Source: Monocercomonoides exilis PA203 (Eukaryota > Protista > Preaxostyla). From it: a stretch of 64,000 nucleotides of DNA. Positions 3,048 to 60,500 of the stretch are shown piece after piece (position 1 is the stretch's first letter; each line of letters opens with the position of its first letter). The translations under genes and the position numbers were made by a program. The stretch lies in NCBI GenBank assembly GCA_001643675.2, contig LSRY02000055.1:496001-560000 (forward strand). Reading direction: 5' to 3'. A model generated the notes under the pieces. The model was not told where the DNA came from. It was given only the letters and a program-made list of their open reading frames with translations, and did not search any database.

Positions 3048-3343
3048 AATCCAAAGACAAACTTTCGACTCACGGGCATTAAAGTTTTTTTACAAAAAAG
3101 ATGATTATGAAAATTTTGTTATGGGATTGATCAAGAAAATTTTCTAGTAAATTTTTTGTTGATATCACTAAAAACTGCTCCACCCAAAAGTGTTGTTTTT
3201 TAATGATATTTATTTCCACTTATTAGGCCTTTGCGACAGACCGACTTTTCAAACAGTACCTCGACAAGTCGACCGACAAGACAGATTCAAAACTTTTTTT
3301 GGTATTTTTGAAGATATTTCAATATAACTCTTTTTCTGTTGAT
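3048..3343. repeat. Right arm of the inverted duplication with 1-296
   Basis: Reverse-complement match to 1-296. Confidence 0.95.
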
Positions 3344-4149
3344 TTTTTTTGATTAATAAAAATATATTTCAAATTTCCTTCGACAATTAACAACTTTTTT
3401 TGATATTAAAATTTTTTCTGAAAAATTACCAAAAATTCATTTCTAATGGTTTATCGACAGATCTTTGTCGAGATCAGTCTGTCAAAAGATCAGTCTGTCA
3501 AAAGATCAGTCGGTCAAAAAGATCGAACTGTCGAATGGAATAACATTTTTAAAAGCATTTCTTCATTTCAGAAATAGACTTTTGTGACTGTTTTTTTCAT
3601 AAATAACTTTTCAACTTGAAAAATTAAATGATTTTAAAAGAGAAGAAGTGTCTAGTCTATCTGGTATATAATATTATTAGTCCAAAACCTCAATTTGTTA
3701 ATCGCAGGAACTGCTTTCAGATATTGATGTTATAAAACGTCATTATCCAAATAAATAATTATGGAAGCATTCCATAATAATAATTGATTTTTTTGTTTTG
3801 TTTATAAACTTCAAATTTGTGAAAAATGCAGTTGAAAATATGAAAAAGGTTTAGCAAATATCATTGTTTTAATAATTAAATACAATTTATATAATAGTAG
3901 TTTGATGGAATTGTCAATGCTGATGATATTGATTTGAAATAAACAACAAATAATTTTGCGTAATCGAAACACCTGCCTTGGAAGAATAATTCATTCAAAC
4001 GAGAAAAAAATGAGGAAACAAAAATATAGAGAAACGACGAAAGTTGTTATTTAAATAATTAGAGAAAGAAAAAGAAGCCATCTAGATTTTGAAAAAGAAA
4101 GCTGAATTAATATAGAAAACAAAAGAAGAAAAAAGAATTACAAACTGTT

Positions 4150-5000
4150 AGGGATTAGTTCACCTGCTTTCTTTGTTCTCTTTTCTGCTTCTTCTTCCTC
4201 TCCAACATAACCTTTAAAAATCTCTTCTCCTTCGCTTCTTTCCAACGTCTCCTCTTTACCTCTTCACAATCCAACTTCTTCTGCTTCATCTTCTCTTTCA
4301 TCATCCTTCTTCACCTTCCTCTTCTCCTTTTTCTATCTTCTCAATCATCTTAATAACTTCACAGAACGTCATTTTGTTCAACCGCAATTTCTGTTCTTTA
4401 TCGAATATGCAACTGCATCAAGTGCTTCATCATATTCAATACTTACTCCAAAACATGCTATTATTTCAACAACTACAACAACAGCTATTGTAACTATTTC
4501 AGCAAAAAAATTTAACATCATCCTGAAACAACATCTTCAAACATTATTTCTCCTCGGAAAAGCCTTCCATCACATTTCCCCACTATTACTTCCATGCAAA
4601 CACTTTCTCTATCAATGCCATCTCCGTATCAGTCACAATTTGTTGTGCAAATTGTGAACCAACATATTTTCAATCCCTTGTCGACTTACTGAAAGACTTT
4701 GCCATCGAGCGAAGCAAATTCACAAATGGAAGAACAAAATCCATCCATTTCTGATTCTCAGCTGCATCCGCTGTTGCACATTTGATAACAGCAGCATCAG
4801 CAACTGAAGGCAAAAATTGAAGCAACATGACAAAACACACAGACTCCTACTCAAAAAACTTTTCCTCAAAATAGCACTATTCTTTCTTCACTGATTTCAC
4901 CTGCTTTTACATCTTAACCTTTGTCAGTTGCATTGCCGGTGATAACTTTTTCAGAATTTGCGTAGTATTTCATTCCACACGATGTACAGGCATTTTTCCA
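4150..5000 (-). pseudogene. Decayed host gene fragment (helical-repeat-like) inside element A
   Basis: Protein-like reading ('...AAENQKWMDFVLPFVNLLRSMAKSF...') broken by several stops. Confidence 0.35.
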
Positions 5001-5074
5001 TCACCTGCTATTTCATCTTCAATTGCACTTACAAGCTTATATTCGACGCATCTTTGGATACTAAGTTCAATTGT

Positions 5075-6200
5075 CATTGGGCGGAAAGTGGTGCTGAAGC
5101 AGCAGCGAGACTTGTGGAAGCTTGCGATCCAGAATGAACTGGAAAGAGTGAGGAGGAAGCGAGAGAGCTGGAGCTGACAGCACATCAACCAGAAACTGAG
5201 AAACGATATGTTGAGCATCATGAAGGAGAAGGCGCGGTATCTGTGTGCGATGGAGCAGGAGATGCTGGAAAAGGGCGTGAAAGACAGAATGAAAAATTCC
5301 TTTGCAGAGATTTGGAGAATCACGATGAACAAGCACTTAAGAAGGTATTTGAGGAATTTGAAGACAGGGAGAAAGAATTGTTCTGAATGATGTGAAAGAG
5401 ACGATTCTTTGCTATCAAGACTGATTGAAGAAGGCGACAACATTAAGAACAAAGACATCACAGAAGCGGAAGAGGCACAAGCAGATGACAAGAAAGATGC
5501 ATTTGTTGCAAAAAAACGAAAGATTGAGGCAGCTCGTAGCAGGGCAAGTGAATGAAGGAGTTCAGATGGAGGAGTGATGAAGGGAGATTTCAATGCATCC
5601 AAAGAGAGAGCAGGAAAAGCAGAGAGAAGCATCAACGGCAGCGAAGCAGAAGCTGCTGGAGATTGAAGAGAGATAGAGACAGAGAAGAATGGAGTCGGAA
5701 AGAGAAGGGAAAGAAAACAAGGCCATTGAGAAGATTTTGAGGGAAGAGCAAAAGAGAATTGCAGATCATGAAAAGCAGAAGTTGAAAAAGGAGGAGAAGA
5801 TGTTGCGGAGAAGCGAAAACAGGAAGAGGCTGAACAAAACAGAGTCCAATCTGAACAGAAAGAAGAAGCACTGAGACTGCAGGGCGAGTAGAAGTTTGCG
5901 CAGATTCGTGACAGGCTGAAGAAAGAGGCGGAAGCTGCTGAATGAGAAGCATCTGGGTGCATTGGGGATAACAGCTGCGTTGCTGATGACGATTACAGAG
6001 AAAGATGTGGTATTCAAGTTTGTGATCGTGCAGTTCTTTCAGGTGTTGGGAGATGCGCAAAAGAGAGCAGAGGATGTTATACTGAGGGAGAAGGAGAGAG
6101 AGAGAGAGAGAGAAAGGAATCGAAATTGAGAGAAAGAGAAAAAGAAAGAGAACTTGCTTCAAAAGAGTCGAAAAATTAAGAAAGCTCAAAAAGTTTAAAT
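5075..6200 (+). pseudogene. Decayed coiled-coil (E/K/R-rich) host gene fragment inside element A
   Basis: Fragments 5208-5390 and 5689-5874 are helical and charged, with stops and a frame change between them. The 330-aa minus ORF is their antisense shadow. Confidence 0.5.
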
Positions 6201-7306
6201 GAAGCTTCTTCAAAAAGTGAATTTTCAGAAATTCCAGCTTTGCTTTAAGCAACTTTTGATTTTCAGTCAATTCTCCATCAGATTATAATTCTTTCTGCAA
6301 CGCACGATGTTCAAATTCTTCATCACATCACGAAAAACATAAAACAAATTGCAAATGAACAAAATAATCAGCAAATAATGTCGATCTCTCAATCACCAGT
6401 AACTCCCACTCATTGCTCAACATCGATTTCTCCTTCATGTCCTCTTCTTCAATGTCCTGTGTTTATTTCTCCATCTTCTCAGACTTCGCTTCCATTAAAT
6501 TCTGTTATTTTAACACAAAACTACCAGCCTTTCTCACTCGCTCCATCTTCTTCTTCTTCCTTATATTAACATAATTCTGTTTTAATCTATTTAAGCTTCT
6601 GCTACTCAATATCCAATTGTGTTTGTGATGAGCGAATTTACATTTATTGAATGCAAGAGGCTGCTGTCAATTTGAAGTGTTCAAAATTGATCAGTTTTTG
6701 ATGCAGAAATATTGGAACAGACGGAAAAAAAAGAACACAAACAGCAAAACTTCAATTCATTTTATATTTTGTTTTACTATTGTCTGGACTGAAACCGAAT
6801 ATTTTCATAAATCAAACTATTGTTTATATATTTCAATTTTTATTTTGTTTTGGTTTGATTGCAACATTTGTTTGGCTTCGTTTTATTTTCAAAATAGAAA
6901 AAATGAGTTTTATTCGAAAAATTTTGCTATTTTGCTTTTTAGCTTTCTTGAATTTCGTTTCATAAAAAAAGAATTTTCAAAAATATAACACTTTATTTTT
7001 TGTTCATGCTAAAATGAATATTTTTCGAATCTTTCAGTTAGAGAAAAATTTGGATGCTAGAACGAATATCAGATGAATTAAATACATTGTGAATCTCAGA
7101 CTCTCATTAAGAAAAAAAAAACCTCGACATAGGTTTTTCCATTCGACCGACAATCATCCAATAATTTTTCCTTGTCGCAAAGGCCTAGCCACTTATTATC
7201 ATGAATGAAATCGTGAAATTGAAGGAGGTATTTTGTTACACTTATGCCGTTCATGTTGAAGTACATGTTGGAATACTAGTGTGAAGGGTGGACAGTTGAT
7301 TGCCAC

Positions 7307-10300
7307 ATTAACGAAATATAACTGACTACACACACGTTCGTTGTACCATCATTTTTTTCAAACAGTGTCCAAGTTGATGTTTTGCCTGCACCGGGTTGAT
7401 GGTGCAGATAATGTGAGCGATGCTGTGGCGTGGAAATGTTGAGTTTAATCTCCGAGCTTTTCACCTGCACATGGTGCACAGGATGCACCGGGTCAAATAT
7501 ATCCTATAAATTATGTGGGCAAACGAGCAAACGGGGCAAATGGGCATAATACATTTTATGTGAAAATGAACTGTTACCGTAAATGTTCGACGTTAACTTC
7601 AACATCATCTTCCCCGAAATGTTCGTTTCAAAAATAATTCTGTTTCAAAAAAAAATTGTTTTTTTAATTTTTATAAAATGACAAACCCCCTAACAGACAC
7701 TGACAACGTAATCCAACAACTGATTGATTCAATGGAAACAGAACAGGAAACGATGGGAGAACGAATGAAAGATCACATCGTTGACTTGTTCGACTACAAG
7801 AAATACTCTGACAAGAAGCAGGGTCAACGACACACTGGAACAGCTGTCGATATCAGCAAATGTGAGGATCTTTGTGTCGTTGATGTTGACATTAACAAAT
7901 CCCTTCAAGCTGAACAAACAAAAACCATCAGGAATTCCATTCTCGACAAACTCCCACGAAATGTCGGACTTGTACAAACAGCTCATGGTGGTCTTCACAT
8001 TTATTGTGAGCTGTGTAATTATCCCCTCAAATGTTCATCACAAACCAAAGTGTTCACGAGTCCAGAGAACGATATCGACATTTTTGCAGGTATTGGAGAT
8101 GGAAAACAGAGACTTGTTGTTCAAGCTGACTCTTCATACAGAGAGATGAAAGATGGCAAGAGAATCATCACCAAATACATTCCCCTCAACAATTACAGAG
8201 AGCTCACAGATCTTTCATCACTCGAATGTGTTCTTGACGTATTCGGTATTGACCTCAAAACAGAGAATACATCAGCAACAATGGCAGCTGAACCACACAA
8301 TCTTTTCACACAAGATGGAATCGTTGAAATGTCTCCAATAATCGCTCTTGTTCTTGTCGATGGACTCAAAGATGTTGAAATACATAACGATACAGGTTCT
8401 CTGTCACTTGACTCTGAGTTAACTCTTTTGCCGTTATTTGCAGCCCTCAACTCTTTCGTCAACATTAAGGGTTTTCACAACCAATCGATAGATTTTCTTT
8501 TCACTCAAGAAAAAGACACAGCAGCGTAAACAGCAAATGCAATCACTCACCATGAAAAGAAACGAAACAGGTTCAGAGATAACAAGTCACATCCATTTGT
8601 TCTTCAAAAGATTGTCAAGAGATGGAGTCCATCATATTACAACGATGTGATCATTCCACTCCTCAGAAAAGAGAATGAGCAAAAGGAAGAACCTCCACGA
8701 GAGATTTCTGTTCATGAAATAGATCTCAACTCATCGTTCTCATTTCCGAAATCAGGGATAAAGCTTGTCGAAAACAATACTCCTCACTGTCTGAAGTCGC
8801 TGAAGATCTCACAAAAGTGCTGAGATTTGTTGAAGCAAGGATGGAATTCATTGTGACAAAGTTTGACATTCACCCCTCTTGTTATTCGATATCATTCAAT
8901 GCAAAATCAGTAATGCATAAACTGTTCAAAACAATAAAACTCCGGCATGATGACAAAAAGACTATCACAGTTGAGACAGCTTTCGATCAATACTCTCATG
9001 TTCTATCGATCGATGGGGTGAAGTTCTAGTCAGATAACCCTCGAATATTCTCTCTGAGACATTGGTTCAAATATCTAATGACAAACGAACAAAACAACGA
9101 AATCATCAAACCATTCCTTGATTTAACACGAGAAGTTATCTCCAACAACAACGATGAACTCTATCAAAACATCCTCTGTTGGATTTCGTCAATTGTTCAA
9201 AATCCTGGTAAAAAAGCAGAAACATCACATGTTCTCAAAAGTTTGCAAGGTATTGGAAAGAATATCTGGACAAATGTTCTTGTTGAACTGTTGGCTGGAT
9301 ATTCATATCCAAATGTCACAGAGATTGCAGAACTGACAGGACAGTTCCACTCCATCGTCGAAGGGAAAATGCTGATTGTACTGAACGAATTGAAGAATGT
9401 TGGAGATGATCGAACAGCTAACTTTGATGCATTGAAGAGTATAATCACCGATTCAACAATCAGAATCAATGAGAAGAATCAGCCAAGAAGAACAGCTGAG
9501 AACGTAGCTAATTTCATATTTGTGACAAATCACACATACCCAGTAAAAATTGAGATTGGTGACAGAAGATATGTTGTTTGTGATTGTAACTCAAAATATA
9601 AGAACAATCTCACATTCTTCAAGGATTTCACTAACTCTTTCGATAATGAATTCTATGAACAACTTCTCTGTTATTTCCTCAGCAAAGATCTCACCAATTT
9701 CAACACAAGGGCTATTCCAACAACTGAGGCAAAGGAAGATATCATTGCAGCATCACTCTCTGTCATCGATGTGTTCTGTCAGGAGCATTACAATAAACTC
9801 AAAGAAGGGTGGAGATGTTCTGATGCACTATGTTTCAGACCAGTTGAATACAAGAACGATCGCTCATTCCAACTAGCAATTAAAGACAGATGTGAGAGAA
9901 AACAAATGGGTGGAAGAGGAAATCAAGTGTGGTGTTATAAACTCAAACCAGAGTATGAACAACTCTTCAAACGACGAGAAGATGAAGATGACATGGACCG
10001 TTCTGTGGAAATCAACTAAACATATTCGTATTTTTGGAATCATTAATACACAAACGATACAACTTGTGTGCCACCAACGAATTAATAATGTATACCACAG
10101 AAGATGTCATGTGGCAATGTGGCAAAATGACAACATAATCGAAAATAAATAAAAACCCTCAAATTCATAGCAAATTAGGGGGAAAATGCTTATGTTAGCA
10201 GAAATTGCATGTTGGCAGCTCTTTTCAGATGAACTTAAACTATCCTGGACACCTGGACACCTGGACACGCTTCCAGCACGGAGATTTAACTCAACATTTC

Positions 10301-10470
10301 ACTTCCCCAAGCATCTCGATATTGCCACAACCCGGTATCCTGGACACCGATTTACCACTTTTTCAAGTAAAAATATTGTTGTTGGCAACCAACGATAACA
10401 TCAACATGGACCACTGTCCTTAACAATCAACGATTCAATTAACGTGTTCAGTCAGTTATATTTCATTAAT
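7307..10470. mobile_element. Putative integrated replicon/viral-type element: Prim-Pol-helicase gene between degenerate inverted repeats
   Basis: Colinear inverted blocks: 7307-7327 with 10450-10470, 7362-7381 with 10397-10417, 7391-7398 with 10328-10335, and 7433-7454 with 10279-10300. Confidence 0.6.
7678..10019 (+). pseudogene. Disrupted Prim-Pol (AEP) primase-polymerase fused to an SF3/D5-like helicase (DUF5906, NrS-1 polymerase-like architecture), ~780 aa when reconstructed
   Basis: N-terminal 'LCVVDVD' and 'VQTAHGGLHIY' are Prim-Pol motifs. C-terminal Walker A 'LKSLQGIGKN', Walker B 'LIVLNE', 'LKSIITDSTIRINEK', motif C 'FIFVTN' and Arg finger 'GDRR'. Lesions: in-frame TAA at 8527, frameshift near 8742, in-frame TAG at 9027. 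No introns seen. Confidence 0.88.
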
Positions 10471-10717
10471 TAACACATTTATCCCAATCAAGCTTGTTCA
10501 GGCAATAACCACTAACTTTTTCCATCAACTCATCTAACAACTCATCACTTTCGATAACCTTTCTCCTCAATATCTTAATCAACTTCTTCTGTTTTTCAGT
10601 AACATGTTCGTTGTAATACTTAGTTTCTTCTTTACGTTTTTCCTGAAACTGTTTAATTTGTTTCTGTTGAGCCTCTTTCGCTTCTTCCACAGTTGCGTAT
10701 ATCTTCTTCCGACCCAT
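10466..10717 (-). CDS. Small basic helical protein (83 aa), convergent with the primase-helicase; putative DNA-binding accessory protein
   Basis: Intact ATG-to-TAA ORF 'MGRKKIYATVEEAKEAQQKQIKQFQEKRK...' with protein-like composition. Its stop lies in the right inverted repeat. Confidence 0.6.
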   Translation of the reverse strand: MGRKKIYATVEEAKEAQQKQIKQFQEKRKEETKYYNEHVTEKQKKLIKILRRKVIESDELLDELMEKVSGYCLNKLDWDKCVN

Positions 10718-11001
10718 TTACGATAAAACAAAAAACAAAATCAATTATTTTTATTCACGATCACACCAACGATAAAATCAACTGTCATCACTAATTGTCA
10801 GACTAATTTTCCATCTTCGACACTCACACCTGTTATTTCCATCAACGATAACACAAACGATTAACAAACAGGTTCAACACATAAAGCTGTTATTACAAAC
10901 TCATGTATTTCATCAACGAAAACATCAATTTTCACACAAATTCACCACTAATTTACCAACTTCGACACACTGGTTAATGTTTTTGCTAATTCTCCTTCTT
11001 G

Positions 11002-11250
11002 GAGATATGGTATACCCGCTATGGATATATCTCGATTACACCAATCAATAACTCCATCTTTATCGAACATCACTGAATATCTAATCATGATAAACCCCCT
11101 AAGAGTATCAGCAACAACTCTCGATCTCTATCTTATAATCATTGCCTATTCAACTTATAATTCAAGATGATAACTACAACATGATATTCATAAATCGATA
11201 TTATTGAATGACCTAATCGAGATGGATCCATAGCGGGAATACCATATCTC
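11002..11250. mobile_element. MITE-like element (249 bp) with 37-bp TIRs
   Basis: GAGATATGGTATACCCGCTATGGATATATCTCGATTA (11002-11038) versus its inverse at 11214-11250, 3 mismatches. No clear TSD. Confidence 0.65.
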
Positions 11251-13024
11251 TTTTTCATCCAAAAAAATTGAATGAAACCAAATCATACTATTTAGGAGTC
11301 AAACCTCTTGTCAAACATTACACACTTATCAACAACATGAATTTTTTTAAATTGCATTGCAACATTTCAATATGAGAATTAAGAATGTCTTTTTCAAAAT
11401 ATAACGATTCAGAAGTTGAATTCTTTGAATATGAATGAGTTTGATTAGCAATGACCAAACATTTATTGAAGTGAAAGCAAAAAGTGTTGGAATAAGCGAG
11501 TAGTTAATGAAAAATACAACATCAGCCATTATCATTCATAACTGGATGTCATTCAAATGATCACTATTATCATATCTGACATTTTGAATACAAAATTGAA
11601 ATTTCATCACAATGTGAAACAACTTTTGAAAAATTTCAGTTTTTTACAAATGAAGTGTTTTTCAAATGTTGGTGAAATGTCAAAACCAATAAATAAAACT
11701 TTTCTCAAAACAAATGAATAATTAATGAAAATGAAATGTGAACCTGCAAGAGTTACATGAAATGCAGTCATATTGAATAGCTCTTATAAATCAGAGCATT
11801 CCATTGATTACAATATAATAAAAAAAAGTCAGGGGGAAAAAAAATGATAAGCTCCATTTCAGAAATATCGAAAATAGAATAAATATACTCAGAAACAATT
11901 CTTTCTTGGATTTTCAAACAATTTGTTTGTTTATTGAAATTTTTGAGTGCGTGTTAATCAAAATAAAATGAAAAAAATTCACAAAAATAAATTGTTGATT
12001 CTGTTGACTCATTCTCTAAAAAAGAAAAAGAATAAAAATAAAATAAAAAATAAAAAAAAAAAATAAAACCAAGGAGTTGAAAAGGACCGAATTTGCGAAG
12101 TGAAAGAAACCAATAAATAAACAAACAAATAAAAAAGAAAGCATTTGTCTTTCTGTATTATAGAATCATATGTTGAATAAATCAAATGGAAGGTTTCAGT
12201 TGGCTGGTGAAATGCTAAAAATTATTCAGTTAGGAACCCTCTCCCTCCCCCTCTTCTATTTTTTCCCCCTCCACAAATACCTGGCCTTTTTTGTCATCTC
12301 AGAAACAAACAGTTTCAATTGTGATTAAAATGTTTCTTGTTCCAACCAGACAAATCAAATGCACCAGATCACCAATTATCCGAAATCTTGAAAAGAACCT
12401 TGATACTCCAATAATAACTTTCGAAAAGGCTCGTTTTCAAAAAATAATGCCCAACTGGATCACCATTCATAATGTCAATGCAGCTGACACTTTCTTCGTT
12501 CAAACTTTTCGATGATCAAAAATTTCATGTTTTGGCAATCAAATAGAGAAGCGGTTGCCAGAAATAGCTCTGTCATTCATTTACACACTTGAAGATGGCG
12601 GGAGGGAAAAATAGATGGATAAAGAGAGAGAAAGAAAGAGAGAGAGAGAGATCAGATTTGCTCCTTTGAGGATGTCTTGCCGAAGGACAAAGAAAAGAAA
12701 AGAAAGAAAAAATTCTTGCACCTGAAAATGAGCTGATGGTGCAAACTCAAATCACACTGAAATGATGCTCAAAGCGAATAGTGACTTCCATTCTGCACAG
12801 AATGGAAAAACGGGCAATGTCTCACACATGCAGGCAAATGAGTGCTGAACATTTCTCTTGGCTGTCCGACAAAATTCGTTTTTGAATGACTTTTCCGAAT
12901 ATGTGCGACTATTTCGCTCACTTGCCAGAAATCTTCCAAAAATGTATCAGCTGTAAACCAGAGCCTCGTTGTTGAATGCAAAAGAAATAGATCCTCAATT
13001 ATTGTTCAATTATTCTCGCACTTT

Positions 13025-16000
13025 TTATGCAACTTCATCCCTCATAATTTCTTTCATCCGTTTTTTCACCTCTCCCAGCGTGGGCCTTCCCCTCGCATCA
13101 TCCATCCACATCCTCTCCATCACCTCAATCAGCTCCTCTCCCTCAATCCCTTCCGTCAGCGGACGCACCCCATCCCTCATCATCTCCTGCGCTTCCTCTG
13201 CATCACACTCGCTCAACGGCTCTTCCCCTGTTGTCATTTCATGGAGAATCAGTCCAAGTGTGAAAACAACTGCTTTTCCAATTCCCTCATCTCCCACTTC
13301 CTCTTCATCATCTTCATTTTCGCTGTTAAGTTCAGGCGCCTTCCATCGCTTCATTTCTTCCTTCTGCTTTTCATCCTCCAATTCTTCATTCAATAGGTAT
13401 ATTTCATTATTTCCTTCCTCAACAAAGATTGTATGTGGGCACAATTGTTTCCCCATCATTTCCACTCTTTCATCATCAACCGATATCAAATGCTCAAACA
13501 GTTCTGCAACTGCTTTTACCACCTCCTTCCCATCAACAACATCCATTGCTCTTGTTCCCAGTGTGAAATCCCCTTCAACAGAATGAATCATCGAGTATAA
13601 TGTTTTGATGTTCTTTTTCTCTTTCTCTCGAAATGGCTTCTTTGCTGATATCACATTGAGTGAATGAGATTTTGGTGCCCCAGCAGCAGAATCATTCTCG
13701 GAAAATGGCAATGAAGATTCCAAATCTGGAAGATCGTTTTCATTCAGTATTTCATCATTGTTCATTGACGGAGGCTCTGGAAGATCTTCTTCATCGTTGT
13801 CAATGAGAAGCGGAATTTGGCTTGTCATCCCTTCCAGCAATGTCGATGGCATTTCACTCATCTCAAAGCTTCTTCCATTGTTTTCCCTTCTTCTCCTCTC
13901 CATCTTCTGCATTATCTGCTCATTTTCCAAAATTTCTTTCTCAACTTTCTTTTCCACTTCTCTTAGTTTCCTTCGCAAAAGCACAACAACCACAACAAAT
14001 AAACCAACAAAAATTAAAAGAGCAGCAATGCACCCAATAAAGGCAAATAAACTCCATTCAATCCCGCTTTCTCCTTTACAATCTTTGCAGCCTCCTTCTG
14101 AAATTCTATCATCTCCAGTTGAAGGAGACACAGTTTTATTTATCACAACCAATTTATTAGAGGATAATGAATTCCCTTTCCCAAACAGAATGCTCATGCT
14201 CACTTCTGTTTTCTTTCCCATCACTTCCACCTGCTCTGACGTGATAACCGAATGAATTTCGTTTTCTGAAACACACTCATTTTCTTCTATCTTTTGTGTT
14301 TGGATCAGTTCAACGTCCCCGTCTTTCATGCTTATCTTCAGCGACAAGTTGCACGGAAGAAGCAGCTTCCCCCGGATGCTCAAGTCCATGCCCCCACTCG
14401 CCTGTGTTGTGTTCTTCACTTCTTCCAGAACTGGGATGAAAAATGATGATGTTCTTTCACTCGCTATCCCTCCCAATTGACATCCTTCGTCCAAAATCCA
14501 AAGCGATGAGTTATCTTTCAGTCCGTCTCCACCTTTCACACTTGCAACATTCAGCTCGCTGTTCCCTGTGCAGATCACATTCCTTCGCGCTGACGGATAT
14601 CCCTCAACAGATGGATTGTTGTTCTCAAACTTGCTGTTTTCTATCATCAAGCTGCCTCCACTCACCCACAGCCCTCCTTCTTTGCTCTTCATAACTGTTG
14701 TTTCCTTCATCTCCACATTGCTGTTTTCAATGTCAATCAACGAGCCGCTCCATTCGCATAATTTCTCTCCTCTTCCTTGTTCTTCATTCACTGTCTCTGC
14801 TTCTTTCTCCTCTTTTTCTCCATCAAACACACATATCTCAACCTTCACTTCCTTGGATCGCCTTATCTGCATCATGCTTCCCTTCTCCACCGAATTCGCG
14901 CTTTTTTCAAACGAGCAGTTCAGCACACTCACCTCCTGTTCTGCGTCTTCCATCGCAACAACACATCTTTCTGATGCTACACTCACATTCTCTATCCTCA
15001 TGATCTTCATCACCACCTTCGCTTTTCCTCCAACACTCACAACATCTCCCTCACTTTTGATATTTGAAATGCTCGTTTCAAGCAGCGTCACATTCGATTC
15101 TCTGTTGAATAATAATATTGACCCTGTTGAGTGCAAATCTCTAAATGCTGAATCAAATATCCTCAGCTCTCCGCTTTCCACGCTCACAACCGAACTGCTC
15201 AGCTTCATGTCTTCTGCTGTTGCTGATGAGTAGAACTCGCATTTTTGGATCTCCATTGACCCGTTCTTCACTTTCATGATGTAGCTGTGAGAAGCCTCAA
15301 ACGTATCTTCAAACTCGAATGAGCACCTCTCCACAGCGCTTTCATTTATAAACTCCATGATGCAATCCTTCTCTGCCGATTTCTCAATCTTAGATTTCAG
15401 CTTCACAATCGCCTGTGTCTTTTTGTATGAGTTCACATTCAGATCTCCAATCACACATTCCTTTGTCACAGTCCCTTCTCCGTCAATCAGAATCGCATTC
15501 ATCACTCCTTGCTCAATGTGGTCAATCGCTTCGTTGATGCTGCTGCATGGGTTGCCCTGAGCTCCGCATCGTCTGCCATCATCCCCCGACCCATTCAAAA
15601 ACACTTGAAGACCTTTGAAGAATGTGATCAGCGGAATAACATCCATGTCAGTTTTCCCCTCCGAATCACTCCCGCAGATGGAGTTGTTTGTGCCCAATGA
15701 TTCCTGGTTGTAGTTCAGCGAGAACAGTGTTTCGTTGATCTGGTGCCCAATTGAATGGCATTTGATGAATATGTCTTTCCCCACAAATGCGTCGTTCAGC
15801 CTGAACAAGATATTCACAATCTTGAAATTCAGTGATGGAATCTGACTTTCATCATCAATGTTAACATTTCGTGGGTCTGCTCCATCGATATACAGCCCTC
15901 CACCGCGCCCTGATCCCGTCGAGCATCTGCATGTCGAAAACGTGCTCCCATTCACCTTCAAAACCGATTCTTCACTCTTCAGCACCAATTTCATTCCTCC

Positions 16001-19000
16001 TCCTTCTGTGTTCGAATCGCTCCTGCACGTGGACATTGTGCAGTCTTCGATCGTGCATTTCATCGCATAATCAAACGATCCCAATTCAATCGCACTTGCT
16101 CTGCTTCCTTCGTTTATGATGTTTTCAAACGAACAGTACACAACTTTCAACACAGGCTTGTTGCCATTCAAACGAGTGTTTTCATTTCCATTCATCTGGT
16201 TTTCCTCTTCTATCATCGAAATCAGGCTATTTTCTTTCAAAGTCGCTGATGAAATGTTCACATTCTGGATCGTCACCTGGCTCGCAGTTTGGCTGAATGC
16301 AATGAATCCTTTCAATTCGTTGATCTTATTCAAAGTGCAGCTCTGAACTGCTGCGCTCCCTCCGTTCACTTTTATCAGGCAACACTCAAAACTTTCAACA
16401 TTCCCGCCAGCTGACCCAAATGAGCAGTCCGTAACTGACAAGACTGAATTCGTTCCTGATGATTCAATGAATACTGCATGATTGGTGGTTGTGCTGGGTT
16501 TGGTGAACGAGACATTCACAAACGACAGACTCACATTCGATGATATCATTGAATCTTTCAGATCATTCCCATCTTCATCAGATATTGTCACAGCTGTCCC
16601 TTTCTTTGTTCCTTTTATCACAACTGCTGGAGCCTCTGAATCTGGCAAAGTTGGCAACGAAGACAAGAATGATATCGAATGGCTCAGCAACCCTGAATCC
16701 CCAATGCTGATCTGGGATTCGCCTTTTCCAAGTGTCGAATATCTCAGTGATATCAGGTGATTGATCGATGAACACGGTGCTTCAGAAAAGCCACACCCAC
16801 TGAAGTCTCCTCCTTTTTCATTCGATACAAACCCATCTTTGCTCCAGTTCCTCCACAAATACACAACCAATGGAATCACATATCCCTCATCTGTGCTTGC
16901 TCTCTCCCATCCACACAGCTCATCCAATGACTTCTCATCACTTGCACTCAACCCCCATTTCAGTTGTTCGTTTGACATAACATCGTCCAGCTCATTTCCC
17001 GATATGAACACTTTCTTCCCTTTCCAAGCATTGCACCTGCTGAATGTCACTCCTTCCATCTGAAATGATCCCATTGTATCTGCCAATTCAACAAACATCC
17101 CTCCTCCCATTCCTCTTCCTTTCTGCAAGTTGTCCTCTGTTGGCACCTGGCATCCTGTGAATGTTACGCTATTAATCTCCAAACTTCCTCCGTTCTCAGC
17201 TGAAATCATCATCCCTCCTCCTTTCATCCCACCTCCCCCTGTGCATGTTGTTGAAATGCTGCAGTTATCCACAACTGCGCTTCCTCCTTCTTTTATCGCA
17301 GCACTGATGCAACCTCTTCCTTCTACGCTCCCACCTTCCACCGTCACTCCACTCACTCTGCTGTTCTTTATCTCCAGCTTCTCTCCATTGCTTATTGTTA
17401 TTGGTGATTTGCCGTTCATCGTCAGTGTCGTTACACTTTCCATCATCAATCCATCCACAATCAGTTCTCCTCCCGCAACATTCAACACGTTGTATCCTAT
17501 CTTTCCACCCGTAAATGCTCCACTTTCAAATGACACTGAACAGCTCGCCAGACGCAGTGTTGATGATGAATGGATGAGTGCTCTTCTTCTCGAACTCAAC
17601 TGTCCTTTCACAACAAATGAAATACTGCTTATAGTCAGAGAATTCGAACATCCGACAAACCAATCTTGTGTGCTTGATCCTTCTTCAACCACATTCACTT
17701 TCACCCTTGTTATCTCTTCTCCTGCTGTCACTTTCCCCGAAACACTCACATCGAATGAAGGCCCGATGACTTCATCCTTTATTGATGATTCAGAAGAAAC
17801 CTCAACTCTTTGGAAGCCTTTCGGAACTCGAGTGCTCATGCAATAATTGATTGTTTCACACCCAAACTTCTCAAATCCACAGTAGCTGTGATCCAATGCC
17901 CTCTCTCCGCTCCCATCGACAGTCAGCTTCGATTCGATGGTGAACAAATACACAAACAGCGGAATCACTTTCTCTCCGTTCCCATCCTCGCTCCCGCACA
18001 ACTTCAGCACATCTGTTGGTATTTCGCTTGAATCAAAAAACTTAAATGTTGTTGCATCTATTTTTGAGTCCAATAGCACACCACTCCCACAGCTCACAAA
18101 CACGTCTTTCCCATATTTTGCTTTTGTTAAAAAATGAAGATGAAAATTTAACTTCTGATGCAATTTCCAACTTGCTCTTCGTGCTCAGCATCTCCAGCTG
18201 CAATCCTCCCCCTGTCCCTTCATTTGCTTCAAGCTTATTCGCCTCGCATCCATCGATTTTCGTCGATCCATTCACAACAACACTTCCTTCTCCCGTCACA
18301 CTCACACACAACCCTCCTCCTCTTCCTTCTTTTCCGTCTTTTCCATGGCATTTGCAATTTTTAACTGTGCACGTGTCTATTTCAACTCTTCCATTTAGCC
18401 CAGCCCCTCTGTCCACACCAACTGTTCCAACAACCCATCCTCCGTTCCCATATTTCTTTTCCACGCTTGAGACTTTGCATTCTGAAAAGCGCACAAAGTT
18501 CACGCCCCCGACAAATTGAACCAACGAGCTGCTTTCAAACACCAATGTCCGATCAATCAACAATTTTTCCAATATCATATCTCCTCCAATCGCCTTGACA
18601 AAGACATATCCAATTGAGTGATCCCCATCGTCATTCGATGAACAGACAACTGAGCATTCTGAGAGCGTAAGGAGCGTGGAATTTGCTAAAATCAGCGATG
18701 GAGCACCTGACAGAACCGTCGGAATGCTGAAATCGATGCTGCTGATGGAACATTCGCTCTGCACATCAATCAAATATTGAAGTCCAGTAGTTTCTGGATC
18801 AACAACCTTCACACTCTTTTCATTTCCGGTGCAAAAGATCTCCCATTTATAAGCATCACTCATCGACACTACTTCTGCCAGCTCCAATCCTGAATCAAGC
18901 TCGATTTTTTTATTCACACCTGCATATCGCAACTGAGCAGCGTGGGTGATGGTGGCACACGGATAATAAGCAAATCCGCAGAATTGCGAATCATATCCTC

Positions 19001-21914
19001 CCAATTGGTTCTTTGCCTTCCCCACATGTGCAGCAGCCGGAAATGTGTCCAGAAACACATTCAGTGGGAATTTCTTCATATCTTCATCACTCCGATCGAA
19101 TCCCTCCAGCTCGTCGAATGCCGATGTGTTTCGCGGAACATTAAACTTTGAAGAGGAGATGCCCCATTTCACACAATTGCTCCCATTCACAAACAGAAAT
19201 TTCCCCCCCAATGTTGCTGTACAACCTGAAAAGTCAACAGCCATCATCGAGATATCGAAGGCAGAACTTTCCCCGATATTTTCCAGATACAGCATCATCC
19301 CTCCTCCATATTTGTTACACTTGCATCTGTTCAATTTTGTTTCCTCGTTTGCCGCGGCTGTTGAACTCCCCACCCGCAACTTGCTTGAAGATGATTCCAA
19401 CTCGACCTTGATCCCACCACCACTTCCAGTCTTGCACTCGCAATCTTCGATTGTCACATTCTTGACCACAAACGTTTCTCCTGCCTTCACACTCTTTGCC
19501 ACAACCACCCCATCTCCTTCAGTCAACTTCACATTCGTCACCTTCACATTCGCCAGCACGCTGTCTCCTGATGCTGTGGCTGTCAGATACAGTGCAGATG
19601 ACGATAATGACGACAATGAAGAAGAAGAAGAAGAAGGAGAAGATGGATTCGGCTCAGAGAACAATGGTTTTGAGACATTCAAATTTATGATCTCCACATC
19701 AACCATCGACAGCTGTGACAGCGGCACCACAAACACTGACGACGACATCACATAGTTTCCTGAAGAAACACTCGTGGTGATCACAACATCCTCCAATGAG
19801 AGTGACCCACCCCCATCAGACACCACAACCACATTCGGCGAAGAAGGATTTATATTTGAGTTGCAATCAACTTTCATGTGCAATAAACCAAGGTTTCCTG
19901 TCGAAACACTGAACAACGTTCCTACTGCTGATGATGATGAAAGGGCTCCTATTTCGATCGAACTCTTATCTTTGCCTTTCCCAATGACTGAAATCTTCTT
20001 TGTTCCAATCTCAATTGTTGTTGTCTCACTTTTGTGATTCCCTTCCATCAGTGTTATTGTCAAGCTAATCTGTATTTCGCACATCTCAAGCGCCTTCTTC
20101 ACTGTCAGACAAGGATTTGATTCATTTGACCCGCACAGTTCATACAAGTCATTTCCATTCACCGAAACATAAATCGTCTTATCCTTCAACCATTCCTTCT
20201 TTTCTGTGTGCTGAAATGTCCAAGCATTTGCATTCGAGTAGTTGTATGCATAACACACTCTTTGATCATTCGCGTTTGTTGTATAACATTCATAGAACGG
20301 ATTGTCTGAAGTCGAAATGGCATTGTAATAATCAAAATACATCACATCATGCCCATATGGATTGGAGGTTGTTCTGCATTTGCATTCATGGAAGAACAAA
20401 AAATAACAATAAAATTTATCATTTGGCGCTGTTGCTCGATTTGGATACAATTCCAACCCTCCACCATATCCATTTGCTGTACATGAAATAAATTGAATGC
20501 TCCTCATTTTGAACTGACTTGGAACAGTCACACAACGCATGCCTCCACCTCCATTGCTTGTCAATGAGCATGAGGTGAAACTGCAGTCAAACACACACGC
20601 ACTCTCCCCTCCTCCATTTTCTGAACCAATGCAATCAGCTCCTGAAACCTGAAAACTTTCGAGAAGAAGTCCTCCTCCTAAGCCACTAGCTTTGCAATTC
20701 TGGAATTTACATCCGCTGATCCGAGCACATGTTGAAACAGAGCTGACGTACATTCCTCCTCCATATTGATTTTGTGCTGTACACTCATTGAACACATCGT
20801 TTTCGATATGAACAGACTTTATTGTATTGCACATAATTCCACCTCCGCGACTGAATGCAAAACAGTTATTAAACAGACAATTCGAAACAGAGAGCTCTCC
20901 AGAATTGAGATTATACATGAAAATAGCCCCTCCACTTGATATTCCATCAGTATACGAGTCGCTTTCTCCTGTTGTTTTCGATCCACTCCATTCACACCAA
21001 ATAAATGAGTTTGCTCCATTGGTTGTTGTATTCTGTCTTCCTGGAGTTAACTTTCTGACTGATGTTCCTTCACATACAACATTCTTTGTCCGGCAACATC
21101 CGATGAATGAAGTGTTTGAAACAGATAAGGAAGCCAAGGGGTTGTTGAGTGAGGGAACAATCCCTCCATCATATGCGTCGCAAACTGATGAAAAGGAGCA
21201 ACTATTCATCAAACAAGTGGTTTGGGTTAACATTGTGGTTGAAGGTGAACATGCCTCATTTGCTGTTGAGATGTTGAAAAATGTCAGATGGGAGAGGGAT
21301 ACAAGGGGTATTGAAGGGGATGAGAGGAACGGGGCTGATGAGACACAAAAAGAAGAGAAGTGTGATTCACTCACTGAAATACTCCCTTCAATGCCTTCTC
21401 CATATCCATCTCCTTCTCTTCCTCTTCCTCTTCCTCTTCCTCCTTCTCCTTCACCTGCTTTTTCTTCACCTCCACCCTTCTCCCCTCCATATCCCTTCCC
21501 TCCAAACAGCCTTCCCGAGTATATCTCTCCCCCACTTCTCCACCCCTTCAATGTGATGTTCCTCAACACCCCAATGCTCCTGCTCAGATCAAATGCCCCT
21601 GCACCATCATCCTTCCCCATCCCCATAACACATCCTCTCACCACAACCACACTCCCTTTCCTTCCACACACAACATTTCTGCGCTCGTCCTTTATCAGCA
21701 ATATCCTATTCATTGTAATTGATGAATTTTGCATGTGTATGCATCCTCTAATATAACTTTTGCAATTTTTATATTTATAATCTTTTGAAAAAATAAATGA
21801 TCAAAAATTGAAATAACTGTCATCTATCAATCAATATAGGAGCATACTTCGATATTCTGCACTTAGCATACAGGCATATATCAATACGCTAAAATAACAA
21901 ACAGTTGATGACAT
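13025..21914 (-). CDS. Giant type-I membrane receptor-like protein (~2,900 aa): signal peptide, Cys/Gly-rich beta-helix-like ectodomain repeats, one TM helix, C-terminal kinase-like (pseudokinase) domain; one frameshift
   Basis: Predicted exon 1 21914-21848 (MSSTVCYFSVLIYACMLSAEYR) and a 66-nt GTATG...AAG intron 21847-21782 that splices in frame to ORF 18042-21734. Removing one A at 18122-18125 joins it to ORF 13025-18163 (FFN-KAKYGKDVF). Repeated 'GGG..l' and 'CG....PC.TI' modules. TM 'WSLFAFIGCIAALLIFVGLFVVVVVLL' (~13978-14057). Kinase C-lobe motifs RWKAPEL, VFTLGLILHEMTTGEEP and RPT. Confidence 0.85.
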
Positions 21915-43600: not shown

Positions 43601-46360
43601 GAAAAAAGAAAATAATCGTTATTTGTCCCATTTTATCTAAAATATTATCAATAAGAAAAAAAGGGAAATATGAATTAATACATTGTTCCTTATTGTTGAA
43701 ATAAGATAAATGTGAAGGATTTTTCGTATCATGCACATGAGAATGAAAGATTGTTGAATGAAAAGAAATAACAAAAAATAAATCAATAAGAAAATTGATC
43801 AAAATATAATATTTTAAATTTCTCTCAAAAAATCAAAAAATTTCCTCATATTTCATTAAACAACACTGTTTTTTTTTTTTAATGAAGATTAAAAAAAAAA
43901 AAATTTATAATATATTTTAAGCTCTCAAAAATTTATGCAAAATAAAAATATTGGTAAAATTTAAATCCTCTTATTTCTCGACAAAGACTTTTCAGCTCGA
44001 CCGACAAATAACTTGATAATTTTTTGTGTCGCAGAGGCTTACTGTAAAATGAACAAGAAGAAAGAAATTTTTGAGTCACAAACAAAATAAAATGAATTTG
44101 GTTAAATATTCACAAAATATTCAAAAATATTTTTTGATAATTCACGATAAAAAATATTTCTATAAGAAATTACTCCATGAAAGCTAATGAAAAAGTCTTC
44201 TTATCCTTTTTCTTCCATCTCATCAAATATTTTTCATTATTAATTCTATTCTTTTCGTTTCATCAACCTCCTTTTCATCTTTCTCTTTTTCTTTTTATCG
44301 CCTTTTAATGTTCATCAAAAAAAGGAAAGAATACTTAAGTCATTATGTCATTTAATGTTTGCTGTTGAGTCTCCTTCAAAATAGAATCGACTGCTCCAAT
44401 TTTCAACAATCCTTCAACTTTTGCATCTCATTTTTTCGCAACATTTCTCAACAAATAGATTCATCTCTCGCTTAAATCTTTGTGATTTTCCTTTGCAGCA
44501 CTAAATGCCCAAGCAATGCCCTCAACAAGCCCAATAAATTCTTCATTCCATAAGTTGCATAACCGAAGAAAATTTACAATGTTTGGAACCATCTCATCAA
44601 AACGCACTTTTATTTCGTTTCTTTTCCCTTTTCCTCTTCTTTCTTTTTCCAATTCACCCACTTTGTCAGCTCTTCCAGCTCTCTTATTTCTTCTCTCGAT
44701 AAATGCAGCTCTTTCGCAACAACAACTTCCAGTTCTCCTTTCATGCACGATCTGCTTTCAAAAAACTGTCACTCTGTCTGATATGAGAGTCTTGTTTGAT
44801 TGTTGTATTTTTTTATTTATTGGATAATCTCTAAAAAATAATCTTGGAAAAGTTCACTCCACGTTTCCAAAAAAAATTGAAAGAAATTCCTTAATATCAA
44901 AAATAAATGGAAATGTTCACACATCATATTCATTTTAACAATTCAATGATAACAAAGCAGATTAAACATCCTTTTGAACTTCCTCTTTTCCCTCTTTCTT
45001 CAAAGAAACATTCAGAAGACCAGAAATGCAAATAGAAAGCAATTTAAAAAAAAACCTACTGCAAAGCAAAAGATAACATACACAGAAATAAGAAAGAAGA
45101 TTTTCGCTCTTCCCTTCTTTTTTCCTTCGTCAGCAATCATCCTCTCATATCTTTTGTTAAACAAAGATTGGTCAAAAATTTTAATTAGTTCATTTTTCTC
45201 AGAACTGTGATATCCCATATGTTTTAACAGCAAAAACAGATTCTCCAAAATATTTTCTTTTCTCAAATCATTTTGTCCATTTTATTGAACAGTTCTTTTG
45301 CGAAAATAGATTTATATTCTTCTTTGTTCATTCCATCCATCGCTTCTTTCATTTCAAGAATTATCTGTTTCCTTTCTCTTCAGTTCAGCGTTCAAGCTTA
45401 GAAAACAATTTCAAATAAAAAACAAAGAAAGAAACACAATAATCAAGAATTTTTGAATAATAATAAAAGCAAACCATATAACATTCATTATATACACATA
45501 TATTTTGCATTTTCATCATTGATTTCATTCAGGAAACAACATCGTTTAATCATGAAAGTTGAATTTGAATATGCTTGGATTCAATAAATTGAAGAAAAAT
45601 CGAAACTCAAAGTGTTAATGACATCAAAAATGTTGACACTATTTTTTTATGTTTAAATATGATCAACAAAACATTTTGTTAGAAAATTTTGTTTTATAAT
45701 TATTTTTTGGCTACAATGGATAAAATGATCATTTAATGGAAACATGTTCATAAATTAAAGACAATATTCGTATTAAATATTAACACTTATGATTATATTT
45801 ATTACAATTTTTTTTTAGGTGACCGATAGTAACAAAAAATTGCATGTCGTGTCGCACAGGTCTTGTCACATGAAAATGAGACAACTTTGCAGAATAAAGA
45901 AAAAAAATATTTTCAAATTTCGGAGAAACCCTGAGTCATAATAATCTCCAAGTTCTTCCGAAAATTAAAAACGATAAGTTTTTTATTCATGGAAGCAAGT
46001 TGTTTCATTTTTGTATAATTTATAAGTTTGCATTTATTGATGGAATAATTGGACTTATTATCTTTTTGTGACAATAAATAATAGTTGAGATAATGCTAGT
46101 GTCCGCAGTCATTAAAAGAGTTCACTATTATCAACACTCACTACAATAATACATTTTTCTTATCTCAATATTCAAACGAAAATTTCAATATGAATTTCTT
46201 TCTGACGAAAAAATTATGGACTTAAAAATCATCCGTGTGAGGTCACAAAACACTATGTTTCGATTTCACTTGTGACTGTACAAAAATATAAGAATTCATT
46301 TTATTTTGAATCTGAGAGAGTTATGAAATGTTATGAAAAATTCAGTCTCAAAAATGATTT

Positions 46361-57566: not shown

Positions 57567-60500
57567 ATGAATCCTTTCAAAAGAAAACATAACGGAATTG
57601 GAAACAAGAGCATCAAACGGGATGTGAAAAATCTAGAAAATATTTTTGGAAAAATGTCAGAGAACCATGCAGAACTTGTTCTCTTATCATTTTTACAATC
57701 TACGAAGCAAGGAAAAAAACTTTTGGAAACATTGTCCAAATCAAAAGCATGTTTGTATTTGTTTTAATATTAAATACAAAATTACTAATATTTAAACATC
57801 ATTTTTCAAATAAACTTGAATTATTTTATTTTCTATAGCTATTCCAAAAAAACATTACAATGAAATAGATATTAACTCAGATTCAGAAAGCACTGAATCA
57901 TTATCATCAGATTTAAGTCCAATTGCTTCTGTGCCTGCAACTTCGAATAATTCTGAATTATTATCATCAGATTTAAGTCCAATTGCTTCTGTGCCTGCAA
58001 CTTCGAATAATTCTGAATTATTATCATCAGATTTAAGTCCAATTGCTTCTGTGCCTGCAACTTCGAATAATTCTGAATTATTATCATCAGATTTAAGTCC
58101 AATTGCTTCTGTGCCTGCAACTTCGAATAATTCTGAATTATTATCATCAGATTTAAGTCCAATTGCTTCTGTGCCTGCAACTTCGAATAATTCTGAATTA
58201 TTATCATCAGATTTAAGTCCAATTGCTTCTGTGCCTGCAACTTCGAATAATTCTGAATTATTATCATCAGATTTAAGTCCAATTGCTTCTGTGCCTGCAA
58301 CTTCGAATAATTCTGAATTATTATCATCAGATTTAAGTCCAATTGCTTCTGTGCCTGCAACTTCGAATAATTCTGAATTATTATCATCAGATTTAAGTCC
58401 AATTGCTTCTGTGCCTGCAACTTCGAATAATTCTGAATTATTATCATCAGATTTAAGTCCAATTGCTTCTGTGCCTGCAACTTCGAATAATTCTGAATTA
58501 TTATCATCAGATTTAAGTCCAATTGCTTCTGTGCCTGCAACTTCGAATAATTCTGAATTATTATCATCAGATTTAAGTCCAATTGCTTCTGTGCCTGCAA
58601 CTTCGAATAATTCTGAATTATTATCATCAGATTTAAGTCCAATTGCTTCTGTGCCTGCAACTTCGAATAATTCTGAATTATTATCATCAGATTTAAGTCC
58701 AATTGCTTCTGTGCCTGCAACTTCGAATAATTCTGAATTATTATCATCAGATTTAAGTCCAATTGCTTCTGTGCCTGCAACTTCGAATAATTCTGAATTA
58801 TTATCATCAGATTTAAGTCCAATTGCTTCTGTGCCTGCAACTTCGAATAATTCTGAATTATTATCATCAGATTTAAGTCCAATTGCTTCTGTGCCTGCAA
58901 CTTCGAATAATTCTGAATTATTATCATCAGATTTAAGTCCAATTGCTTCTGTGCCTGCAACTTCGAATAATTCTGAATTATTATCATCAGATTTAAGTCC
59001 AATTGCTTCTGTGCCTGCAACTTCGAATAATTCTGAATTATTATCATCAGATTTAAGTCCAATTGCTTCTGTGCCTGCAACTTCGAATAATTCTGAATTA
59101 TTATCATCAGATTTAAGTCCAATTGCTTCTGTGCCTGCAACTTCGAATAATTCTGAATTATTATCATCAGATTTAAGTCCAATTGCTTCTGTGCCTGCAA
59201 CTTCGAATAATTCTGAATTATTATCATCAGATTTAAGTCCAATTGCTTCTGTGCCTGCAACTTCGAATAATTCTGAATTATTATCATCAGATTTAAGTCC
59301 AATTGCTTCTGTGCCTGCAACTTCGAATAATTCTGAATTATTATCATCAGATTTAAGTCCAATTGCTTCTGTGCCTGCAACTTCGAATAATTCTGAATTA
59401 TTATCATCAGATTTAAGTCCAATTGCTTCTGTGCCTGCAACTTCGAATAATTCTGAATTATTATCATCAGATTTAAGTCCAATTGCTTCTGTGCCTGCAA
59501 CTTCGAATAATTCTGAATTATTATCATCAGATTTAAGTCCAATTGCTTCTGTGCCTGCAACTTCGAATAATTCTGAATTATTATCATCAGATTTAAGTCC
59601 AATTGCTTCTGTGCCTGCAACTTCGAATAATTCTGAATTATTATCATCAGATTTAAGTCCAATTGCTTCTGTGCCTGCAACTTCGAATAATTCTGAATTA
59701 TTATCATCAGATTTAAGTCCAATTGCTTCTGTGCCTGCAACTTCGAATAATTCTGAATTATTATCATCAGATTTAAGTCCAATTGCTTCTGTGCCTGCAA
59801 CTTCGAATAATTCTGAATTATTATCATCAGATTTAAGTCCAATTGCTTCTGTGCCTGCAACTTCGAATAATTCTGAATTATTATCATCAGATTTAAGTCC
59901 AATTGCTTCTGTGCCTGCAACTTCGAATAATTCTGAATTATTATCATCAGATTTAAGTCCAATTGCTTCTGTGCCTGCAACTTCGAATAATTCTGAATTA
60001 TTATCATCAGATTTAAGTCCAATTGCTTCTGTGCCTGCAACTTCGAATAATTCTGAATTATTATCATCAGATTTAAGTCCAATTGCTTCTGTGCCTGCAA
60101 CTTCGAATAATTCTGAATTATTATCATCAGATTTAAGTCCAATTGCTTCTGTGCCTGCAACTTCGAATAATTCTGAATTATTATCATCAGATTTAAGTCC
60201 AATTGCTTCTGTGCCTGCAACTTCGAATAATTCTGAATTATTATCATCAGATTTAAGTCCAATTGCTTCTGTGCCTGCAACTTCGAATAATTCTGAATTA
60301 TTATCATCAGATTTAAGTCCAATTGCTTCTGTGCCTGCAACTTCGAATAATTCTGAATTATTATCATCAGATTTAAGTCCAATTGCTTCTGTGCCTGCAA
60401 CTTCGAATAATTCTGAATTATTATCATCAGATTTAAGTCCAATTGCTTCTGTGCCTGCAACTTCGAATAATTCTGAATTATTATCATCAGATTTAAGTCC

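Follow-up and report, generated by a model that had tools for sequence, protein, structure and literature searches.

The window considered here, a stretch of 64,000 nucleotides on contig LSRY02000055.1 of the oxymonad Monocercomonoides exilis PA203 (positions 496,001 to 560,000), contains a broken gene for a replicase in which a Prim-Pol domain of the archaeo-eukaryotic primase (AEP) type is fused to a superfamily 3 (SF3) helicase. The gene is bracketed by inverted arms and belongs to a multicopy unit with a defined right limit; sister copies link it to both flanks, and one relative stands in a Maverick-like gene context. With about even confidence, it is read here as a copy, now decayed, of a capsid-less AEP-SF3 module that derives from the metamonad gene pool of Mavericks and polinton-like viruses (PLVs) and multiplied as a unit of about 4 kb; such a stripped-down viral replication module has likely spread alone or with a helper, and an entirely new type of element is less likely. 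The gene and its parts, numbered from the first letter of the window, are as follows.

7678..10019, plus strand: Prim-Pol (AEP)-SF3 helicase replicase pseudogene of 780 codons, from tblastn to the gene model P0001 and a DUF5906 match.
8527..8529, plus strand: break 1, an in-frame TAA stop, from tblastn to P0001.
8744..8745, plus strand: break 2, a one-base frameshift, from the frame switch in tblastn; the indel is present in contigs from all four M. exilis DNA runs.
9027..9029, plus strand: break 3, an in-frame TAG stop, from tblastn to P0001.
7753..8268, plus strand: predicted Prim-Pol catalytic domain (residues 26-197) with DxD, TxxGGxHxY and a third acidic residue, from a fold match.
8784..9947, plus strand: predicted C-terminal region like that of NrS-1, made up of collar, SF3 ATPase and C-terminal domain (residues 370-757 of P0001), from the model of P0001.

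P0001, an unbroken M. exilis gene model of 758 aa, was the top one of 105 matches among 1903 candidates of 577-2000 aa. Its residues 1-356 align to 7678-8745 in frame +1 at 90%, and residues 357-758 align to 8745-9950 in frame +3 at 89%; because this tblastn alignment is gap-free across both frames, the three open reading frame (ORF) pieces of the region are one intronless gene, and the span 7678-10019 corresponds to 780 codons plus the stop. The preliminary description of this DNA had joined the same pieces into one intronless gene of approximately 780 aa and had called the copy dead from two stops and one frameshift, and both statements stand. Besides being dead, the copy has been decaying: 14 of the 124 columns conserved at 90% or more are altered in it, nine of them privately, compared with one private change in P0001 and a median of 1 in the other 84 rows. 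A reassignment of TAA and TAG to glutamine in the host was ruled out, since the neighbouring kinase gene and both genes of the element end in TAA; the paralogue P0001, which carries different residues at both stop positions, also contradicts it.

The identity of the encoded protein was approached by profile, sequence and fold comparisons. All of the Prim-Pol and SF3 motifs quoted in the preliminary description were found in the translated ORF pieces. The helicase piece matches DUF5906 (PF19263) in Pfam at E 9.6e-21 and the NrS-1 chains by phmmer (6k9c, E 7.6e-16). Similarly, the model of P0001 (pLDDT 87.6, from an 85-row alignment) superposes its residues 370-757 on residues 305-718 of 6k9c with Z 27.2 and a root-mean-square deviation (rmsd) of 3.7 over 364 aligned positions, and matches the SaPI5 primase-helicase 7om0 with Z 19.1; the C-terminal region is thus predicted to be an NrS-1-like hexameric helicase. 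As for the N-terminal domain, searches of Pfam, PHROGs and PDB sequences found no primase profile, PF09250 included, and the domain was identified by fold alone. Its model (pLDDT 80.3) is best matched by the Prim-Pol of pRN1 ORF904 (Foldseek, 1rni, E 6.8e-5; Z 9.9, rmsd 3.5, 153 aligned), followed by NrS-1 (6a9w, Z 8.1) and other AEP enzymes, which predicts an AEP Prim-Pol fold. The residues D69, D71, H107 and D134 are present in 93-98% of the 85 rows of the conservation alignment, which holds 85 of the 105 matches. Together, these comparisons support the assignment of the gene to the Prim-Pol-SF3 replicases of the NrS-1/DUF5906 type, of non-host origin, as had been proposed; of the two Pfam families named in that proposal, PF19263 was recovered and PF09250 was not, the Prim-Pol being visible by fold.

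On either side of the replicase gene lie two arms composed of short blocks:

7307..7552, plus strand: left arm, with blocks at 7307-7333 and 7362-7381, a 26-nt core at 7433-7458 and three 9-nt TGCAC units at 7466-7488.
10243..10470, minus strand: right arm, inverted relative to the left, with three 8-nt units at 10243-10268, a core at 10275-10300 and blocks at 10397-10417 and 10444-10470.

Four inverted blocks are colinear either side of the gene, namely 7307-7333 with 10444-10470 (27 nt, 89%), 7362-7381 with 10397-10417, a short pair near 7390 and 10330, and 7433-7458 with 10275-10300 (26 nt, 92%); inside the 26-nt core, each arm carries its three short tandem units. The flank-to-flank alignment scores 135, above all 500 shuffles (mean 62, sd 8.7, maximum 93), and the flank score of 57 exceeds that of all 458 other window segments (mean 23, maximum 36), so that the inverted blocks first noticed in the sequence are beyond chance. 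The arms are gapped and their blocks are 74-92% alike; they are diverged inward-facing modules, which excludes near-identical or fresh terminal repeats, and they lack the Maverick/Polinton hallmark of near-identical terminal inverted repeats with a 6-bp target-site duplication. The TGCAC triple is unique in the window (0 of 100 shuffles) and occurs once in 689 kb from 94 related loci, approximately 265 bp upstream of the replicase in locus L012. A search of viral contigs with the arm core gave one match, at chance level, and the non-coding flanks matched nothing across the 94 loci.

The unit is repeated in the genome. Six NCBI records of M. exilis, on six different contigs, belong to the replicase family and group with the window copy in a single clade (SH-aLRT 100 in a quick tree of 122 of 124 rows, two being omitted for short coverage). 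Among them, the gene model P0106 (804 aa) reads through all three break positions and continues into sequence like 10020-10082. Summed contig depth, which is used for rank and limits only and is not a copy number, was compared with single-copy contigs at about 220 (X2) and 11 (X3): it reaches approximately 6-20x the single-copy level over the replicase gene in X2 and 8-14x in X3, approximately 13-17x over 7405-7552 in X2 and X3, approximately 20-30x over the right flank, 40-75x over a small gene beyond the right arm and 34-50x over a terminal foldback, and drops back after about 11250. The small gene thus appears more abundant than the replicase. In two sister contigs the left arm is followed, after a spacer that has diverged, by the start of the gene, with joints from 7461 to 7686 (in three of four runs) and from 7470 to 7541-7696, and others span the gene end into the right flank (9847-10212 and 9825-10135). 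In several contigs, a piece of a left-type arm is joined to a right-type piece on the opposite strand, and such joints occur in up to four of four runs. Many sister contigs fall below 95% identity, with a wide spread, and the adjoining host DNA is not duplicated along with the replicase gene. The six contigs, the raised depth and the sister copies that share the arms bear out the expectation of a multicopy sequence rather than a single-copy host gene.

The right side of the unit holds further features, of which the foldback had been overlooked in the preliminary description:

10466..10717, minus strand: intact gene for an 83-aa basic protein (GRxxxY...E...Q motif), convergent on the replicase and outside the right arm, from relatives.
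10764-10823 and 10911-10968, plus strand: two diverged direct repeats of 60 nt, 78% alike.
11002..11251, no strand: foldback of 250 nt with arms of 50 nt at 86%, its outer edge being the right limit of the repeated unit.

One small basic protein had been assigned to the element; the gene is real, and the arms do not enclose it, as it lies beyond the right one. Its product is 89% identical to MONOS_17995 and has 12 further relatives at E 1e-6 to 9e-4, that is, 13 in total at E <=0.001 among 1.84 billion sequences; it shares no family in Pfam and has no match of at least 0.9 in the ESM Atlas. Locus L011 carries a distant helicase together with a convergent relative of the small gene, on a contig with additional genes, and a small-protein profile built without L011 still matches that relative at E 5.9e-6. 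The foldback has a folding z of -8.65, with 0 of 200 shuffles as strong, and may be an end of the element or an independent miniature element. In X2 and X3, six to eight contigs continue past 11251 into unlike AT-rich flanks, which mark an element end, and one sister contig joins 10755 to 11197 with the inner foldback arm absent. The end at 11200-11255 has no partner in the left part of the window. The size of 3.2-3.5 kb first given to the element is consequently too small, as the repeated unit extends to the foldback at about 11251 and the arms are not its termini.

Such ends could also belong to a free linear replicon, a plasmid or a satellite of a gut giant virus copied by its own Prim-Pol-helicase, that was integrated here with long inverted ends (foldback, small gene and arm per side) and has lost its left outer end. 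We regard this as quite unlikely. It would suit the strong terminal foldback, the arm pair facing inward from both sides, the loose ends at 7370 and 7385, which look like the right arm in reverse complement, and the joint from 7419 to 10506 that connects a left-type arm with the small gene in four of four runs. However, the contigs that enter unlike flanks behind 11251 represent integrated sites, the wide variation of the sister contigs is unlike that of a high-copy clonal plasmid, the link from 10755 to 11197 omits the inner foldback arm, and the left and right arm blocks are only 74-92% alike. A free form did not appear in the contigs, which would not reveal one. Less credible still is the reading that the parts came together by chance in an intergenic repeat cluster, in which an old captured viral gene was passively duplicated with host segments beside unrelated miniature repeats. 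Other repeats do adjoin the unit (6898-7188 and 7190-7248), and the depth of the small gene and foldback differs from that of the replicase; nevertheless, the arms are inverted around the gene far beyond chance and are kept in sister copies despite the diverging spacer, the pairing of replicase and small gene recurs in L011, and the flanking host DNA was not co-duplicated with the gene.

The segment 7190-7248 is itself the end of another repeat family, at approximately 20x single-copy depth and with unlike flanks behind 7248, whose other copies share a leftward continuation that is missing at this locus. A sequence of 65 nt occurs twice in the window, at 7123-7187 and 43977-44041 (74%), its first copy being part of the longer repeat 6898-7188, which stops just short of 7190.

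The preliminary description had further envisaged a minimal element with no visible transposase, integrase, PolB or capsid. Within the 64-kb window, tblastn found no match to the pPolB ORFs of L093 and L008 (E 0.01) or to the A32-like ATPases of L001, L005 and L093, and no DUF4108 relative was found with query ORFs from 16 related loci. The interval 6283-12889 holds no ORF of at least 150 aa apart from the replicase pieces, no integrase profile having been run on decayed frames and no capsid query used. M. exilis is not named among the best 120 listed of 482 A32 ATPase matches. The absence of PolB, ATPase and DUF4108 relatives in the window is in line with this idea, which is weakened by a relative, L093, whose replicase lies beside pPolB and an ATPase.

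The related loci comprise 80 metagenome, 12 viral and 2 genome sequences, of which the closest 16 were examined in detail, and the full fusion of the window family occurs in three of them: L093, L012 and L013. On L093 (9384 nt), the replicase lies 85 bp downstream of a DUF4108 gene (E 5.7e-6; 26.7 bits, the Pfam cut-off being 27), with a pPolB (ESM 0.96 to PF03175 clusters, without a match to a hidden Markov model) and an A32-like ATPase. This layout resembles that of the TvMav3 Mavericks of Trichomonas vaginalis. The L093 protein is nested in the replicase family, where it groups, with weak support, with the T. vaginalis protein. L093, which is filed in a bacterial genome bin, probably comes from a gut protist and was misbinned, and L094 seems to be another such case. 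L012 (5.1 kb) and L013 (7.4 kb), read under table 6, show no PolB or ATPase. L012 holds, upstream of its intact gene, another copy of the part for the replicase N-terminal region, incomplete and diverged (712-1262), which suggests tandem insertion; in L013, three ORFs (3190-6756) that follow the AEP-SF3 gene match no Pfam family, and the contig end at 7329-7442 consists of perfect 16-bp tandem units, possibly a terminal repeat. Helicase-only relatives adjoin A32 ATPase, pPolB or HNH genes in four loci (L001, L005, L008 and L002). Two further loci, L007 (127-2568) and L009 (563-3142), combine the same helicase type with a different N-terminal region unmatched by the family profile, a sign of domain swapping. 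Scans of viral contigs returned 12 distant helicases at 24-31% identity and no match to the N-terminal alignment or to the T. vaginalis protein P0044, and plasmid matches were to the helicase only, below 30%. T. vaginalis itself has a cluster of 198 sequences in the same family, with 54% identity over the helicase piece.

From this context arises the main rival, already raised in the preliminary description as a remnant of a larger virus. It is the possibility, which we hold to be appreciable though short of probable, that the unit is the surviving end of a longer Maverick or PLV: the terminus at 11251, the small gene and the replicase would form its end module, PolB, integrase and capsid genes would have been lost here, and the arms would be internal repeats. 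The same fusion on the pPolB, ATPase and DUF4108 contig L093, the helicase-only relatives beside A32 ATPase, pPolB or HNH genes, and a sharp end on the right side only all speak for it. So do the accessible parts of three publications, which report primase and D5 entries near DUF4108 in the gene list of TvMav3 (PMC12289875), six capsid genes in M. exilis (PMC10120064) and primase-helicases beside terminal repeats as end modules of PLVs (PMC11296320). On the other hand, sister copies keep the left arm immediately upstream of the gene, where L093 has DUF4108; the pPolB, ATPase and DUF4108 queries found no other viral gene left in the window; the small gene and right end are several-fold deeper than the replicase, which fits short derivatives better than a few decaying long viruses; and the correspondence of the replicase family to a named TvMav gene is presumptive. 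The preliminary description would have given up its idea had other copies lain in Mavericks or PLVs or lacked the arms; L093, full-length, nested in the family and armless, is partly such a case.

The preferred reading of a capsid-less module multiplied as a unit is supported, among other things, by the retention of both the left arm and the right flank in sister copies. Prim-Pol-SF3 proteins such as pRN1 ORF904, NrS-1 and SaPI Rep provide the model for its mechanism. By analogy with them, the C-terminal domain of the intact protein would bind the short tandem units of the arms; the protein would open the DNA, start synthesis by de novo priming and extend the primers, which could allow the module to be copied without PolB or a host origin. 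As no integrase gene is visible in the module, new copies would reach chromosomes through break repair, or through an integrase that a resident Maverick or PLV provides in trans; truncated derivatives that retain the small gene and the right end would be more numerous than the copies that bear the replicase. As six capsid genes are listed for M. exilis in the available part of a published survey (PMC10120064), a helper may exist.

Several points weigh against this account. No target-site duplication was found: the best matches, of 5-6 bp, are out of register and no better than chance. Contigs at the locus show no left terminus, and since 7257-7330 is single-copy, the left side of the unit may have been truncated. 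The copy evidence consists of contigs from four DNA runs of one sample, possibly the source of the window, with summed depths that differ from copy numbers, and no single contig covers an entire sister copy with its full gene content. The TGCAC pattern was picked post hoc, and L093 has neither arms nor the triple. Short metagenome contigs were rejected as evidence of small elements because relatives of the A32 ATPase sit on equally short contigs. Moreover, some replicase copies may belong to full viruses, the capsid count of six being near the number of annotated replicase records.

A bolder version would make the unit one of a distinct class of self-priming metamonad DNA elements of 4-5 kb that could do without a transposase, an integrase, PolB and a capsid alike. 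A single Prim-Pol-SF3 protein would read iteron-like TGCAC triples in inward-facing arms, copy the element and template it into chromosome breaks; the ends would be foldbacks, and non-autonomous derivatives with only the small basic gene would be commoner. The class would be the chromosomal, free-standing source of TvMav3-like primase-helicases, or the product of their escape. We consider this version unlikely. The suggestion of an undescribed class, made when the element was first noticed, is weakened both by the context of L093 and by the integrase-free AEP-SF3 module idea already in print: the available text of a 2026 preprint (bioRxiv 10.64898/2026.10.13.758929) proposes that repeat-bracketed AEP modules move without integration genes, describes one element that holds an AEP gene alone and makes no mention of Metamonada. 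The window module shares with this proposed class an AEP-SF3 gene that is bracketed by repeats and stands apart from any capsid module. Likewise, Barth et al. (PMC11296320) report mobile helicases flanked by repeats and mention that T. vaginalis has homologues of primase-helicases, and AEP-SF3 fusions are common PLV replicases in the accessible part of another preprint (bioRxiv 10.64898/2026.06.19.733378). A full-text literature search that left most subscription journals and Repbase outside its coverage returned no description of the replicase family or of the element anatomy in oxymonads. The available text of the M. exilis assembly paper (PMC8767320) mentions no viral, Polinton, Maverick or poxvirus sequences and counts 35% of the assembly as unclassified repeats, and that of the egovirus preprint covers parabasalid polintons only.

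So far, the mobility of AEP-SF3 genes without an integrase is a proposal based on a small number of virus genomes. M. exilis is a cultured protist in which copies are dispersed in large numbers, and it offers both the near-complete gene model P0106 and candidate cis sites; here the proposal could be put to the test through measurements of ends, target sites, origin binding and copy-number change. Part of the unclassified repeats of this genome would gain a name, and hundreds of genes listed as 'Poxvirus D5' or hypothetical in Trichomonas, Histomonas and Streblomastix would be relabelled as mobile replicases. If the copies are ends of ordinary Mavericks, the value falls to that of a useful annotation.

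Elsewhere in the window, the neighbours are host-type genes. Two long frames of 1719 aa and 1252 aa occupy 13025-21800 on the minus strand; the former, at 13025-18184, is a kinase gene whose product has a transmembrane segment and a tyrosine-kinase-like domain at its end (PF07714, E 4e-7), a family reported to be expanded in M. exilis. A tandem array at 57893-64000, of approximately 102 copies of a 60-bp unit that are 99% identical, runs off the window end.

Among known systems, TvMav3 of T. vaginalis measures 15-26 kb and carries PolB, integrase, ATPase and capsid-like genes, of which the tested ones are absent from the window; in the accessible data, 91.8% of its 1705 copies have a 'DNA primase domain protein' and 8.6% a 'Poxvirus D5 protein', near DUF4108 (PMC12289875). 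The T. vaginalis protein P0044 is presumably linked to TvMav3. The mobile AEP-SF3 modules of Polisuviricotina share the AEP-SF3 fusion, the bracketing repeats and the lack of a visible linked integrase; the examples in the available text either reside within polisuviruses or are joined to them in tandem, or else occur in giant virus genomes with no repeats at their flanks (10.64898/2026.10.13.758929). Unlike them, the M. exilis module stands among oxymonad host genes in many copies and has a small basic gene and a foldback end. Transpovirons are small, capsid-less and replicase-centred with inverted ends, as is the window element; the classical ones are linear elements of giant viruses of approximately 7 kb with a superfamily 1 helicase, whereas the window element is chromosomal and has an AEP-SF3 fusion in place of that helicase. 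Finally, NrS-1, pRN1 ORF904 and SaPI5 are prokaryotic phage, plasmid and satellite proteins with 11-20% structural identity to the window replicase, which matches neither Pfam PF09250 nor the NrS-1 HBD; all nonetheless share with it the order of Prim-Pol, helical domain, SF3 helicase and C-terminal domain.

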